Below, one piece after another: positions 15,459 to 27,271 of a stretch of DNA of 50,655 nucleotides (the first letter of the stretch is position 1; every line of letters begins with the position of its first letter). The DNA is from a virus (lineage: Duplodnaviria > Caudoviricetes), in the IMG/VR virus record IMGVR_UViG_3300021338_000005, positions 1-50,655 of that record, one strand, 5' to 3'. The translations under genes were made by a program, and so were the position numbers. The notes beneath the pieces were generated by a model. That model was not told the origin of the DNA. It did not search any database and saw only the letters and a program-made list of their open reading frames with translations.

Positions 15459-16472
15459 ATGGCAAAATCGTGCGTAATCGATGAACACTTATTATTTTCA
15501 AAAGCTGATGAAGTTTTTGAATCAATGGAATACCAAAAGAAAAGACGTGTATTTAACGCGTTAGACTCTTTTAGTGGTACCTTCTCAAACAAAGGGTTAG
15601 TACCTTCTCTTAATCAAAATGATACAAGAGTAAAGATTTATTGGGATAACATTTGTGATTCAACAGTAGTTGCTTGTGACACTTCTTGTACACCTGCAGG
15701 AACTTCAACAGATGGGATTGATTGTCAGGAATACACAATGACACAATGCGCTCAAATTGATTTTAGTATTTCTACTGGTGATTTTGAGGGGTTAGAAGGA
15801 TTTAAAGTTTTAAACGAAACTTTAGCAGATGAAATTATCAGAGGTGAAGCTTCTTTAATTGAATCTCATGTTATACCTTATTTATTGAATACTATTGATG
15901 CTAGTGCTGGTGAGAACAAGTTTACTTTAGACACTACTAAAACAGTAACACCTACTGAAACTACTATTCCAGCAACTCAATGGAACTCACAGTTATTAGG
16001 TTATTTTAGACAAGTTGAAGACTTTAATAAATACTCTAACCCTCGTATTTTATCAGGAAGCTATGCTTTACAATCTGATGTAATTAACAAGGAAATGGGG
16101 TACGGATTAGATGTTGAAAATAGAGGTTATCAAGCTTTAGGTATGAACTTCGATGTTGTAAACATTGCTAAAGTTTTATCTACTACTGATACTTACATGT
16201 TAGATGCTAACAGATGGAGATTTGCTAGTAAGCATGAATATAAAAATTCAGCTCCTAGTATTGCTTATCCTGACGGTGCAGCGTGGTCTACATGGTCTAT
16301 TCCATCTAGATTTATTCCTAATTTAAGAATAGATATGGCTCATAAAATAGAGTGTGAATCTGAAAAGAACATCAGACACTATTTTAGAATGAGAATCAAC
16401 TATGATATGTTTGAAGCTCCAGCTGATTTATGTGATGGAACTGCAAGCGTTTTAAAGTTTGTTTGTGCTTAA
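15459..16472 (+). CDS. major capsid protein
   Basis: 337 aa, after scaffold, followed by a terminator. Confidence 0.75.
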   Translation: MAKSCVIDEHLLFSKADEVFESMEYQKKRRVFNALDSFSGTFSNKGLVPSLNQNDTRVKIYWDNICDSTVVACDTSCTPAGTSTDGIDCQEYTMTQCAQIDFSISTGDFEGLEGFKVLNETLADEIIRGEASLIESHVIPYLLNTIDASAGENKFTLDTTKTVTPTETTIPATQWNSQLLGYFRQVEDFNKYSNPRILSGSYALQSDVINKEMGYGLDVENRGYQALGMNFDVVNIAKVLSTTDTYMLDANRWRFASKHEYKNSAPSIAYPDGAAWSTWSIPSRFIPNLRIDMAHKIECESEKNIRHYFRMRINYDMFEAPADLCDGTASVLKFVCA

Positions 16473-16480
16473 AAATAATT

Positions 16481-16506
16481 AGAGGGTTGAAACACACCCT
16501 CTTTTT
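16481..16506 (+). terminator. intrinsic terminator
   Basis: AGAGGGT-tgaaacac-ACCCTCT followed by T-run. Confidence 0.8.
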
Positions 16507-16511
16507 AATCT

Positions 16512-16582
16512 GCTTCGTTGGTCGAGAGGTTAGGCGGTGGTCTGCAAAACCATGTACACAGGTTCGAGCCCTGTACGAAGCT
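16512..16582 (+). tRNA. tRNA-Cys(GCA)
   Basis: Acceptor GCTTCGT/ACGAAGC, anticodon arm GTGGT-CTGCAAA-ACCAT, T arm ACAGG-TTCGAGC-CCTGT, discriminator U73; CCA not encoded. Confidence 0.95.
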
Positions 16583-16597
16583 CAAAAAATTAATTAA

Positions 16598-24884: not shown

Positions 24885-26251
24885 AGCAACCCATACAAAT
24901 ATTAAACACAGTTTCAGATAACGCATTTATAGACTTAGATGCATTAAACACTACTTTAAAAAGTTGTGGAGAAGGTAATTTATCTATATTTGATTTTGAA
25001 AACTCACCTACATTTTACAGGAATACAAGTAAAGATGTAACACAAGTTAATTTAGCTATATATGATTTAAACAATGTAGAGGTAGAATTGATAGAAGGTA
25101 TAAACTATACATCTGTTAATTTAGGTGAAGAGAACCAAATTTTTGTTGAATCAACAGTAACTAATTTAAGTGAGGGTATTTATTCTTATGTTTATGTTTT
25201 TGATTATTCTGACGCTACAAGTGATTTTTTCATATCGGATACTTATAGACTGTTAGATGTAGGTTGTTTGGATTATTTAGAGTATAGTAATAACTGTTCG
25301 TTGAATAACGTTTATTACAATAGAGTTGAAGGGTTTTCACATAAGATATACTTTGACAAAAATAGTGGGTATCAAACACCTACATTTGAATTTGTAGAAG
25401 AATTTGAAGAAGATGACATAGGTAATAAGAATGCAACAAATAGAGGTTTCAAAAAGGTTGAAGTATATAAGTTTTTCAACACAAATGAGCATCAAATAGA
25501 TGTTATGAGTTATGCAACTACTTTTAATAACTTCAGTTTAGTTGTTAATGAAGTTTCTACAAATGATGAAATAATAGAGCGTATAATTTCAAACATAAAT
25601 TTTAATAACGGTTGTTGTGTGTTTAATGCTGATATTCAATTTAGTAGAGAGCAAATAAATAATAGAGGTTGTTGTTCTTTAGATGTTTTACCTGATTGTG
25701 TAAACTACAAAATAAGTGATAGAAAGGTAGATTCTTTTATAGAAGAGAATGACTACGCAACAGCAGATACAACAAAAGTTTATTTAATATTAGAAAGTAC
25801 ACCTAGTAATAACTCACCATTTAAAGCTCATGTAGGAGAGTTGGCTTATTACAATGGTAGTGGTTGGGATTATGAGGAAGTTGACTATGTGTTAACAAAT
25901 GATGGGTGGTATTCAAATGAAGGCTTACAGGTAAACATAATTCAATCTATTACTCAAACTATACCACAAGGTAAAAGTGCAGATGTTGTTATAGAAAATT
26001 TAACCGAAAATTATAATGTATGCTTATATTCTTCTTTTGAGGGTCAACAGTATGAATTAATAGGAGATTTTAACTATAGTGATTTAGTTTTTATTGGAAA
26101 TACAACAACAATAAACGTAGAGTTAACAAGTGAGATTATTTCATCTTTAGATAATTACGATATTGACTTTAGGCTAGAGTGTAAGTTAAGTGGGTGTTTG
26201 ACAACAGAAACAACATGGTCACAAACTTTTACATTGCAAGCTACAGCATAA
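24881..26251 (+). CDS. tail protein, Cys-rich
   Basis: Position; HVGELAYYNGSGWDY resembles DUF2793-type tail motif; GCC pairs. Confidence 0.6.
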   Translation: MKQPIQILNTVSDNAFIDLDALNTTLKSCGEGNLSIFDFENSPTFYRNTSKDVTQVNLAIYDLNNVEVELIEGINYTSVNLGEENQIFVESTVTNLSEGIYSYVYVFDYSDATSDFFISDTYRLLDVGCLDYLEYSNNCSLNNVYYNRVEGFSHKIYFDKNSGYQTPTFEFVEEFEEDDIGNKNATNRGFKKVEVYKFFNTNEHQIDVMSYATTFNNFSLVVNEVSTNDEIIERIISNINFNNGCCVFNADIQFSREQINNRGCCSLDVLPDCVNYKISDRKVDSFIEENDYATADTTKVYLILESTPSNNSPFKAHVGELAYYNGSGWDYEEVDYVLTNDGWYSNEGLQVNIIQSITQTIPQGKSADVVIENLTENYNVCLYSSFEGQQYELIGDFNYSDLVFIGNTTTINVELTSEIISSLDNYDIDFRLECKLSGCLTTETTWSQTFTLQATA

Positions 26252-26337
26252 TTACACAAATATAGTTTTACTTTAATTAGTCAAGTATATAATTTAGCAC
26301 TTATTAATTAGATTATAAACTTAAAATTTTTATTATT

Positions 26338-26961
26338 ATGGCTTGTGTATCTTGCCCAGCTGATTGTTCAGCAAGTGTAATTTTACCTGCGGTTGGTAAT
26401 GATTGTGCAGTATTTGACGACGCGGAAATGTCTGGTATATTTATTAGTTCTGAGGCTTTACCTAGTGTAAGCGCAGATACTAGTTATACTCCAGGAGATG
26501 ATTCAACTACACTAACTACTTTTTCTGCTGATTTATTAGCTAGAATTGACAATTCAGATGTGTTAACTTCTGATAAGATTAGACACGTATGTATTGAGGG
26601 CTCTATTCCAGTTGCAGAAAGAGAAGAGTTGAGAGCTTGCAAGGGTTATGTTAAGGGTAAACCAACATTTACTTTTGACATGAAAGTATCAGATTTATCT
26701 CCAGAATCAGTACAATTTTGGCAGTATTTAGATAACTGTAATTTACCTGTTTATTTTTACATTTATACAGATTCTACAATTTACGGAGAAAACAAAGGAG
26801 CTACAGCTTGTCACGAATCATTCAAAGGCTATGTAACATTTGATGAGGAAGTAACAGAAGGTAGAGCTTTTAACAGCGGTACTTTAACAATTAAAGTAGA
26901 TGCTGATGGTGGTTTAGCAAGAGCTTACACTAAACAATTAACAGGAATTAACTTATTCTAA
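26338..26961 (+). CDS. putative major tail tube protein
   Basis: 207 aa, acidic, beta-rich; no other tube candidate; N-terminus MACVSCPADC. Confidence 0.5.
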   Translation: MACVSCPADCSASVILPAVGNDCAVFDDAEMSGIFISSEALPSVSADTSYTPGDDSTTLTTFSADLLARIDNSDVLTSDKIRHVCIEGSIPVAEREELRACKGYVKGKPTFTFDMKVSDLSPESVQFWQYLDNCNLPVYFYIYTDSTIYGENKGATACHESFKGYVTFDEEVTEGRAFNSGTLTIKVDADGGLARAYTKQLTGINLF

Positions 26962-26962
26962 T

Positions 26963-27271
26963 ATGGCTTGTTTTAATATGAGTGAACTCCCTTACTTATT
27001 AGTAGGGGAGGACGCTAACGGAAATATGGGTACACACGCTTTGGTTCTTAATTATTTAAGTCCTTTAACTTGTGATTACTCATTGGGAGATTGGAAAAAC
27101 CACGTTATAGAAGTTGATGTGAACGGTAAGCCTAATATTAGAATGGTATTTGTACCTAGACAAGATTTATCATGTGCTAATTTAGGAAATTATCAGATTG
27201 ATTTTTGTGGTTTGAAATTATTTTTAGTGATGGCAGATGATAACAAGCCAGCACTTTTATTTTTAACTTAA
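26963..27271 (+). CDS. putative virion protein
   Basis: Structural operon; 4 Cys. Confidence 0.6.
   Translation: MACFNMSELPYLLVGEDANGNMGTHALVLNYLSPLTCDYSLGDWKNHVIEVDVNGKPNIRMVFVPRQDLSCANLGNYQIDFCGLKLFLVMADDNKPALLFLT

Follow-up and report, generated by a model that had tools for sequence, protein, structure and literature searches.

Conserved virion cysteines, a tRNA-Cys and a CxxC membrane protein in an uncultured siphovirus-like phage

Gene content and cysteine distribution of the structural module

The window, by which we mean the whole stretch of 50,655 nucleotides analysed here, holds a complete phage genome (50.7 kb). The phage is uncultured and siphovirus-like, and the head and tail features discussed below all lie on the plus strand of the window. 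The portal gene (11715..13403; phrog_7376 portal, E 4.9e-21) is followed by a head-module gene whose product has a weak protease-like match (13400..14341; phrog_595, E 1e-4), by a scaffold-like gene named from position alone (14626..15447; no family match in PHROG and Pfam scans), and by the major capsid gene (15459..16472). Past the capsid stop lie a terminator-like hairpin (16481..16502), a tRNA-Cys with the anticodon GCA (16512..16583) and the gene of a Cys-rich, 342-aa virion-module protein (16598..17626). Next come a conserved, Cys-free tail-module protein (17626..18102), whose family gave no match in a PDB search and matched phrog_6195 'tail protein' for 3 of 33 members, and a tail-terminator-like protein (18102..18695), one of whose seven cysteines is its last residue. 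The membrane protein with a GGCLQC motif, placed by the preliminary description inside the tail operon, is indeed found there as a 92-aa, three-span ORF (18689..18967). Two ORFs of 166 and 62 aa (18964..19670) occupy the tail-chaperone position before the tape measure and are kept in 31 and 16 loci, respectively (30 and 15 beyond the near-identical locus L002); the tape measure protein itself (19657..23514; PF10145 and tape-measure PHROGs) has 1285 aa. The module ends with distal tail proteins of putative role (23514..27986), which measure 456, 456, 207, 102 and 236 aa with 4, 11, 8, 4 and 3 cysteines, found no family matches in the PHROG and Pfam scans, and in three cases begin MAC.. or MATNC...

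The identity of the 337-aa capsid protein was examined by structure prediction. Its AF2 model (pLDDT 90.4, pTM 0.88) matched 183 PDB chains at E<=0.001 in Foldseek, with phage capsids on top (E down to 5e-7), and a VIA comparison gave Z 14.8 to Douge (rmsd 4.4, 260 aligned), 13.8 to P22 and 11.7-11.9 to HK97. This assignment is further strengthened by the position of the gene after those of the portal and scaffold, an order kept in related loci, and the modelled fold identifies the product as the HK97-fold major capsid protein of a large uncultured family (199 representatives at E<=1e-3). The earlier label 'capsid' is thus borne out, while 'adaptor' for the 342-aa protein and 'putative tube' for the protein at 26338 are kept as putative labels only.

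Related loci were sought with a sub-alignment, with a single protein and with a degenerate motif scan. One relative was located in a Chitinophagaceae (Bacteroidota) chromosome, and the lineage is probably associated with Bacteroidota; among 401 sampled genomes of that phylum, the capsid family occurred in one, the genome of the original find. In tblastn searches of 50,697 phage records, the capsid protein found no cultured relative, a central member of its family matched nothing, and two members of the membrane-protein family matched nothing at E<=1. Against the phage records, the 13400 protein gave only partial matches, to four Pelagibacter phages, and the terminase gave only matches of <=32% identity.

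The cysteine counts of the preliminary description, which had been made by eye, proved exact: 9 in 337 aa for the capsid protein (15459-16472), 15 in 342 (16598-17626), 7 in 197 (18102-18695), 11 in 456 (24881-26251) and 8 in 207 (26338-26961), with none in the 273 aa of the scaffold-like protein (14626-15447) or in the tape measure (19657-23514). The terminal motifs MAKSC, MDC, MACVSCPADC, FVCA and KEVC likewise match the sequence, and a cysteine at residues 2-6 occurs in 5 of the 22 structural-module ORFs versus 0 of the 63 others (Fisher p = 0.0008). The whole structural module is not richer in cysteine than the rest of the genome (1.25%, 79/6308, vs. 1.69%, 147/8680), and it reaches 1.66% when the tape measure and scaffold are left out; the richness is concentrated in particular proteins. 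The proteome as a whole contains 1.51% Cys. In a single control phage of the same host phylum, Flavobacterium phage lotta8-1, the structural block contains 0.43% Cys, and the membrane protein has no relative there.

Pairwise coupling of cysteines in virion proteins

The median cysteine content of the capsid family is 2.07% (152 homologs), with 2.67% in the window capsid, whose nine cysteines comprise four co-varying pairs and the unpaired C336. Pairing was tallied, and changes were placed on a tree, across 146 full-length homologs. C66 and C325 occur together in 135 homologs, singly in none and are both lacking in 11, and each changes eight times on the tree, every change being joint. For C73/C97 the corresponding numbers are 85 both, 7 single and 54 neither, with 30 and 34 changes and 35 for the combined state, and for the N-terminal Cys/C89 they are 44, 12 and 90, with 13 and 13 changes and 17 combined. 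C77 and C299 are present in all 146 homologs. As an internal control, C89 and C336 change 13 and 12 times with 20 changes combined and are thus weakly coupled. The paired gain and loss of C66/C325, C73/C97 and the N-terminal Cys/C89 suggests structural disulfides.

This observation is further strengthened by the neighbouring structural proteins. The tail-terminator-like family, whose profile matches a 'terminator protein' in the PDB (9wwa_h, E 1.5e-7, residues 55-173; a full-text literature search for 9WW9/9WWA returned nothing relevant), shows perfect co-occurrence of C44 and C114 (split 15/0/0/6). In the 13400 protein, C232 and C284 are invariant in 36/36 homologs. Within the alignment of 30 sequences of the 342-aa family, C3, C253, C260, C330 and C333 occur in all 30 and C18 and C208 in 29, an inserted cysteine pair splits 16/0/0/14, and 23 of the 30 members have even cysteine counts; this protein found no PDB, Pfam or PHROG match, its only look-alikes being anonymous viral clusters of the ESM Atlas. 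The scaffold-like protein has a median of 0 Cys among 20 homologs, and the tape measure has none in 24/24. The conservation and pairwise coupling of cysteines in distant homologs point to a pattern beyond chance.

Some of these cysteines form motifs that resemble zinc sites, namely C16xC18, C206xC208 and C330xxC333 in the 342-aa protein and, in the portal, the C-x8-C...C-x2-C arrangement of C277, C286, C298 and C301, which are invariant in 23/23 distinct homologs. Such zinc-like motifs, and a structural module that is not enriched in cysteine within its genome (1.25% vs. 1.69%), speak against disulfides.

Virions are assembled in a reducing cytoplasm, which also counts against disulfides and is in keeping with another reading, in which the conserved cysteines serve as ligands of a metal (zinc or iron-sulfur) or stay buried as free thiols. 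The CxC and CxxC motifs of the 342-aa protein and the four invariant portal cysteines fit that reading, as does a 2026 gut-phage preprint that describes conserved capsid cysteines as mostly buried and isolated, not bonded (10.64898/2026.07.03.736451). Against it, the capsid cysteines are widely separated in sequence and come and go as independent pairs rather than in threes or fours, C44/C114 of the terminator-like protein likewise behaves as an independent pair, and co-variation is not expected of isolated buried thiols. We consider metal ligands or free thiols an unlikely explanation, and the coupled cysteine pairs of the virion proteins most likely form structural disulfides, within or between subunits. 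Of the proposal that the outer proteins are cross-linked as part of a three-trait pathway, the stapling by cysteines is the part that is well supported on comparative grounds, by paired gain and loss, invariant cysteines and a Cys-free scaffold and tape measure, whereas the pathway as a whole is only partly supported.

The explanation that we favour overall, and hold to be reasonably probable, is a lineage with paired, conserved virion cysteines and a disulfide-stapled particle, in which the tRNA is at most accessory and the CxxC protein belongs to the core gene set. The proteins retained in the mature particle (portal, capsid, 342-aa, terminator-like and distal tail proteins) carry conserved cysteines arranged as pairs, and those that must leave or travel (scaffold and tape measure) have none. 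Cysteines at the very ends of the chains, together with the unpaired C336 of the capsid, could be available for inter-subunit links, as in the phages Milano and Jabs, and the bonds would probably close late, upon exposure to an oxidant, or with help.

Close parallels are known in virion design. Agrobacterium phage Milano (Sonani et al. 2023, PMC10491603), in the available excerpts of its description, is a tailed phage with a disulfide network formed via terminal cysteines and a DTT-sensitive particle, and it shares with the window phage the placement of cysteines near chain termini and their conservation in relatives. The proteome of Milano contains 1.4% Cys vs. 1.51% in the window, and its structural proteins contain 2.4% vs. 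1.25%. Milano, however, is a cultured myovirus with solved bonds linking capsid, neck and tail proteins, whereas the bonds of the uncultured, siphovirus-like window phage are predicted from co-variation only; those excerpts mention neither a tRNA-Cys nor a CxxC membrane protein. Mycobacterium abscessus phage Jabs (10.64898/2026.07.24.740622) is a siphophage in which about 1,700 disulfides form a network across the virion; it is an actinophage and is likened to the window phage by its virion design. A lineage-restricted gain of structural cysteines that are conserved within families is also known from the disulfide-linked siphovirus tail tube gp39 (Protein Sci 2026, PMC13576161) and from the Cys-enriched HK97-fold capsids of gut phages (10.64898/2026.07.03.736451). 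The capsid-protein medians given there are 0.2-0.5% Cys, against which the particular proteins of the window are high, and the gut-phage cysteines are mostly isolated, unlike the co-varying pairs of the window capsid.

The tRNA-Cys downstream of the capsid gene

The tRNA-Cys had been described as the only tRNA and as sitting right after the capsid gene, and ARAGORN confirms both: it begins 40 nt past the capsid stop and is the only tRNA of the genome. It scores 54.7 bits with Rfam RF00005 against a gathering score of 29 and has a U at the last model (discriminator) position, U73 being the discriminator rule of tRNA-Cys identity. Its distribution is narrow, being confined to the window and the two relatives (L002 and L003, ~96% identity) that make up its near-identical clade; none was found in 167 other related loci (about 1.95 Mb), the capsids of which are equally rich in cysteine (median 2.67%). 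Because the tRNA occurs only in this near-identical clade and is not a lineage trait, the supply of cysteine demand that had been proposed for it is not part of a conserved pathway, although such a role is possible for this one phage. The tRNA, located in the late operon, would be a recent gain within the small clade of this phage and at most an accessory supply of Cys-tRNA.

The tRNA may also have nothing to do with virion cysteine, either as a hitch-hiker at a permissive intergenic site or as a substitute for a host tRNA depleted or cleaved during infection. Phage tRNAs that offset the loss of host tRNAs are known, and such an origin agrees with the absence of the gene from 167 loci with equally Cys-rich capsids and with its location downstream of a terminator-like hairpin, where the operon has its only gap of appreciable size. 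Yet the single tRNA is one for Cys, of all possible isoacceptors; it lies in the late operon, adjoining the gene of the most abundant Cys-rich protein, and its GCA anticodon reads all 226 Cys codons of the genome (177 TGT, 49 TGC). We regard an unrelated tRNA as a serious possibility that falls just short of an even chance.

The CxxC membrane protein and its possible role in virion disulfide formation

An alignment of 72 sequences reveals that the motif C50-x-x-C53-x-x-G56-Q57 of the 92-aa membrane protein is invariant (72/72) and that W61 is kept in 69/72; the family has a single conserved Cys pair. The AF2 model (pLDDT 96.3) consists of three long helices, with the CxxC capping the N-terminus of helix 51-67. 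Lysine and arginine counts of 3.97 in loop 1 and 0.83 in the C-tail, vs. 0.07 and 0.21 on the opposite side, indicate by the positive-inside rule that the CxxC loop probably faces the cytoplasm. Present in 31/31 capsid-sampled loci having at least 4 kb downstream, the protein counts among the core genes of the neck/tail module. It is not tied to the Cys-rich capsid, which is missing from 27 of 73 loci with the membrane-protein family; in one group of those 27 the neighbours are unrelated by hhalign and contain fewer cysteines, and in the mosaic locus L054 the membrane protein travels with the neck/tail genes, the head genes there having 0 Cys.

Neither Pfam nor PHROG yielded a match for the protein, apart from a PHROG 781 match for 1 of 72 members, which at E 0.26 was rejected as noise. 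Foldseek returned nothing at E<=0.001, with VKOR appearing only at E 9.9, and the best VIA Z of 6.5 falls in the noise range for helical proteins. None of the DsbB, VKOR, Erv or thioredoxin families was matched, and these comparisons neither assign the protein to a known fold nor exclude one. Pfam scans of 86 window ORFs (26 + 60), and of the membrane protein at E<=10, detected no Erv1/ALR or thioredoxin domain, and no other redox gene was found among those ORFs. The analogy with poxviruses, which had been invoked as a precedent, holds as an idea, that of a virus-encoded route to virion disulfides (E10R Erv oxidase, A2.5L, G4L), and fails on membership, as no Erv-type or thioredoxin-type gene is present among the 86 ORFs. 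Like DsbB and VKOR, the window protein has a CxxC that lies next to the membrane at the N-terminus of a helix. Those enzymes, however, have four spans that form a four-helix core, two pairs of essential cysteines and a quinone site, whereas the window protein has three spans and one Cys pair.

The nearest likeness is to Pfam DUF1360 (PF07098). Six Bacteroidota examples of that family resemble the window protein in their length of about 95 aa, in having three hydrophobic helices with an acidic/Gly-Pro turn following the first, and in an invariant CxxC that opens the second span and is followed by a conserved Trp. An hhalign comparison of the two families placed the CxxC motifs in register over 63 columns (probability 5.7%, E 0.0067), and DUF1360 makes up 41% of the nearest ESM Atlas cluster. 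The motifs differ (CxxCxxGQxxLW vs. DCFYCLSIW), and membership was rejected, PF07098 (cut-off 21 bits) giving no match at E<=10 in the window and five related records, nor among 50 database homologs and 27 family members. The protein thus only resembles DUF1360 in design, and a full-text literature search on the function of DUF1360 gave passing mentions only.

The suggestion that the CxxC protein is a redox catalyst is upheld as far as a conserved core gene with an invariant motif is concerned, and is weakened by the lack of any known redox family and by its occurrence beside unrelated structural genes. In its most specific form, the protein would be a phage-encoded thiol oxidase that acts on the Cys pairs of virion proteins at the inner membrane face and passes electrons to a membrane acceptor, e.g., quinone; this extends the disulfide-stapled explanation favoured above and does not exclude it. 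A CxxC at a helix N-cap is the geometry of redox-active CxxC motifs, and the confident model places it there. Its presence in all 31 loci, the invariance of C50, C53, G56 and Q57, the cytoplasmic CxxC loop predicted by the positive-inside rule and a genome with no other redox gene found also argue for an oxidase. So does the state of the field: two papers of 2026 treat the catalyst of virion disulfides as an open question or as undescribed in phages, and the Jabs authors ask whether a host or a phage oxidoreductase makes the bonds (10.64898/2026.07.24.740622). On the other side stand the single Cys pair and three spans, in which the protein departs from DsbB and VKOR; the failure to find a Pfam or PHROG match, a meaningful fold match or a cofactor site; the 27 loci that lack the Cys-rich capsid family, some with unrelated, lower-Cys neighbours; and L054, where the gene goes with neck/tail genes while the head genes are Cys-free. 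On balance, a thiol oxidase is improbable. It is equally a long shot that the 92-aa protein, and perhaps a wider class of small DUF1360-like CxxC proteins in phage structural modules, is the missing phage disulfide catalyst, an inverted, minimal DsbB on the cytoplasmic face.

Solved virion-wide disulfide networks come from just a few tailed phages in culture, and how bonds form despite assembly in a reducing cytoplasm is stated to be open in the 2026 papers. Our analysis suggests the same stapled design in a large, uncultured, probably Bacteroidota-associated group, in which the co-variation signal predicts specific Cys pairs, and shows that the tRNA-Cys does not belong to a conserved system. 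As a phage disulfide catalyst, the CxxC membrane protein is an unproven candidate, and in it the lineage offers a compact, invariant gene that could be tested in E. coli without culturing the phage.

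Paired cysteines in the capsid protein

The analysis of the 337-residue capsid protein (15459-16472) reveals a family in which cysteines far apart in the sequence come and go together. The protein has no match in Pfam or PHROG; an exhaustive HMMER search recovered 199 representatives at E<=1e-3, and an AlphaFold2 model built with an alignment of 123 of them (pLDDT 90.4) matches HK97-fold capsids, with a Foldseek E of 5e-7 to cyanophage A-1(L) and VIA Z values of 14.8 to mycobacteriophage Douge and 11.7-11.9 to HK97 itself, alongside a weak profile match to the PDB chain 9ww9_F, "capsid protein" (E 9e-4). 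The family is cysteine-rich throughout, with a median of 2.07% across 152 homologs; a 2026 preprint gives capsid protein medians of 0.21-0.51% (10.64898/2026.07.03.736451).

Cysteine pairing was scored in 146 full-length homologs, and state changes were counted on a tree of these homologs built with FastTree. C66 and C325 are both present in 135 homologs and both missing from 11, with none carrying only one, and the tree holds 8 changes for each residue and 8 for the combined state. For C73 and C97, the corresponding counts are 85 with both, 7 with one and 54 with neither (30 and 34 changes, 35 combined), and for the N-terminal cysteine and C89 they are 44, 12 and 90 (13 and 13 changes, 17 combined), while the control pair C89 and C336 gave 47, 46 and 53 (13 and 12 changes, 20 combined). 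Such coupled and repeated gain and loss of sequence-distant residues is the behaviour of disulfide partners. Metal ligands, which come in sets of three or four, would not co-vary like these pairs, and isolated buried thiols would not show coupled gain and loss of this type. In addition, C77 and C299 occur in 146 of 146 homologs, and C336, one residue before the C-terminus, is found without a partner in 90 of the 146.

Cysteine distribution across the genome and structural module

The virus record is complete (50,655 bp, direct terminal repeats at the ends) with a G+C content of 25-33%, and it encodes the terminase large subunit (6260-7660), the portal (11715-13403), a tape measure of 1285 aa (19657-23514), a small terminase gene distant from that of the large subunit (45019-45468) and, by Pfam and PHROG, an endolysin of the amidase type as well as a block for recombination and replication. 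Scans with the same two databases found no integrase in the window, and no close cultured phage was found for the window proteins. The terminase large subunit gene is flanked on both sides by HNH endonuclease genes (5744-8298), one with NUMOD4/HNH_3/AP2 domains on the plus strand (5744-6259) and the other on the minus strand (7636-8298). A patatin-like phospholipase (PF01734, E 4e-20; 31667-33301), which may be an unusual lysis accessory, is immediately followed by an ORF of 145 aa and by the Amidase_2 endolysin. One more cell-wall hydrolase domain, at 42994-43365 (Glucosaminidase, PF01832, E 2e-15), lies amid early/replication genes, remote from the lysis block. An ORF of 62 aa that begins with TTG (19482-19670) runs into the 5' end of the tape measure gene, is kept in 16 related loci (15 besides a near-identical relative) and may be the second half of a tail-chaperone pair.

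The cysteine counts made by eye in the preliminary description proved exact on recount in every case, and its observation as a whole, including the lone tRNA-Cys after the capsid gene, is real. Cysteine makes up 1.51% of residues genome-wide (226/14988; 85 ORFs), and the structural module, at 1.25% versus 1.69% elsewhere, is not richer; the richness is restricted to particular proteins, others having none. Cysteine is found at residues 2-6 in 5/22 structural ORFs versus 0/63 others (Fisher p = 0.0008).

Gene order is common to 48 related viral loci fetched via a capsid sub-alignment, and each family keeps its own cysteine habit. Two cysteines are kept by the family of the protein at 13400-14341 (36/36 homologs); in the family of the 342-aa protein (16598-17626), a putative adaptor, C3, C253, C260, C330 and C333 occur in 30/30 sequences and C18 and C208 in 29/30, with an inserted cysteine pair at 16/0/0/14 and even totals in 23/30. 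The family at 18102-18695, whose profile matches the PDB chain 9wwa_h, "terminator protein" (E 1.5e-7), has C51 in 20/20 and a terminal cysteine in 19/20 homologs, with C44/C114 at 15/0/0/6. The median is zero in the scaffold-like (14626-15447) and 158-aa (17626-18102) families, and the tape measure has no cysteine in 24/24 homologs. Four portal cysteines are kept in 23/23 homologs; the invariant C277, C286, C298 and C301, spaced C-x8-C-x11-C-x2-C, could either bind zinc together or pair up as two disulfides.

A Chitinophagaceae MAG also carries the whole structural module embedded in its chromosome (3.99-4.01 Mb), with the pattern of cysteine-bearing and cysteine-free proteins unchanged. This copy is the sole host clue for the lineage, and the capsid family was found in no other of 401 sampled genomes from that phylum. 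The phage itself probably infects a Bacteroidota host of low G+C.

The tRNA-Cys

ARAGORN identifies a sole tRNA, tRNA-Cys(GCA), at 16512-16583, which Rfam confirms at 54.7 bits and which carries U at the discriminator position; ahead of it lie the stop codon of the capsid gene and a hairpin resembling a terminator (16481-16502). Beyond the window it is present in two approximately 96%-identical relatives and in none of the other 167 related loci searched (about 1.95 Mb in total), whose tRNAs comprise only two tRNA-Met, one tRNA-Thr and one tRNA-Phe. The capsid proteins of these loci are equally cysteine-rich (median 2.67%). Its confinement marks the tRNA as recently gained by a single small clade, outside any conserved system and incidental to the lineage. 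The earlier proposal that it supplies cysteine demand is plausible for this phage, given the 226 cysteine codons (177 TGT, 49 TGC) and the late-operon position, and does not hold as a lineage-wide trait (0/167 loci).

The CxxC membrane protein and disulfide-linked virions

The 92-aa membrane protein with the GGCLQC motif (18689-18967) has no Pfam or PHROG match; its database homologs number at least 50, all of them without annotation, and its gene is present in 31/31 capsid-sampled loci that reach at least 4 kb downstream. C50, C53, G56 and Q57 are invariant in 72 aligned members, and W61 is kept in 69. In the AlphaFold2 model (pLDDT 96.3), which comprises long helices at 2-21, 51-67 and 71-91 plus two short ones, the CxxC caps helix 51-67; fold searches gave no match above noise. 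Lys/Arg counts of 3.97 in the CxxC loop and 0.83 in the C-tail, with 0.07 and 0.21 on the opposite side, suggest by the positive-inside rule that loop and C-tail would be cytoplasmic.

A motif scan of viral contigs returned at least 120 stretches and thereby 118 new loci, some being contigs of the first set; among the matches listed, the motif falls in a member of the family in 115/118. Seventy-three extend 4.5 kb or more upstream, and of these the cysteine-rich capsid family is found in 46 and not in 27, some of which keep the terminator-like and 158-aa genes. Thirteen loci, made up of 12 from the 27 and of L068 (another fetched locus, whose neighbours enter the alignments), have unrelated neighbours (hhalign probability <1%), and the cysteine content of this group is somewhat lower (1.24% vs 1.38%). 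One of the 27 that keep the terminator-like and 158-aa genes, an IMG/VR provirus record of 58% G+C, is a mosaic relative that carries the CxxC gene; cysteine is absent from a 642-aa protein of portal size and from the 424-aa protein in the capsid position, and is retained in its 342-aa-family, terminator-like and distal tail proteins. In this relative the membrane gene follows the neck and tail genes rather than the head. Taken over all these loci, it goes with the neck and tail genes by the tape measure, not strictly with the cysteine-rich capsid. The single host-phylum control, a Flavobacterium phage, is without the membrane-protein family and has 0.43% cysteine in its structural block.

An ESM Atlas search with the membrane protein led to viral clusters in which DUF1360 makes up 41%. 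At E<=10 the DUF1360 Pfam model finds nothing in the window, nor in five of its relatives. Six of the DUF1360 proteins, which occur in 7/401 Bacteroidota genomes, resemble the membrane protein in length and helix plan, with an invariant CxxC opening the second span; hhalign places the motifs in register, but with a probability of only 5.7% (E 0.0067). These cellular proteins (93-105 aa) share an invariant WR.TH...EDGP.D...DCFYCLS.W. In design, then, the membrane protein resembles DUF1360, though it is not an established member; a full-text literature search on DUF1360 returned passing mentions only, and no function.

Disulfide-linked virions have precedents: Milano has a virion-wide disulfide network through terminal cysteines, with DTT destabilising the particle (PMC10491603), and Jabs has about 1,700 disulfides, for which its authors leave the choice between spontaneous formation and catalysis by host or phage oxidoreductases undecided (10.64898/2026.07.24.740622). 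The redox role proposed for the CxxC protein makes it a candidate catalyst of virion disulfides, which we consider unlikely to be its function. Overall, putative cysteine stapling of the virion is well supported by comparative sequence evidence, and on this support the phage would be an uncultured addition to the already-known disulfide-linked virions, its membrane protein being a conserved puzzle and a candidate catalyst open to testing.
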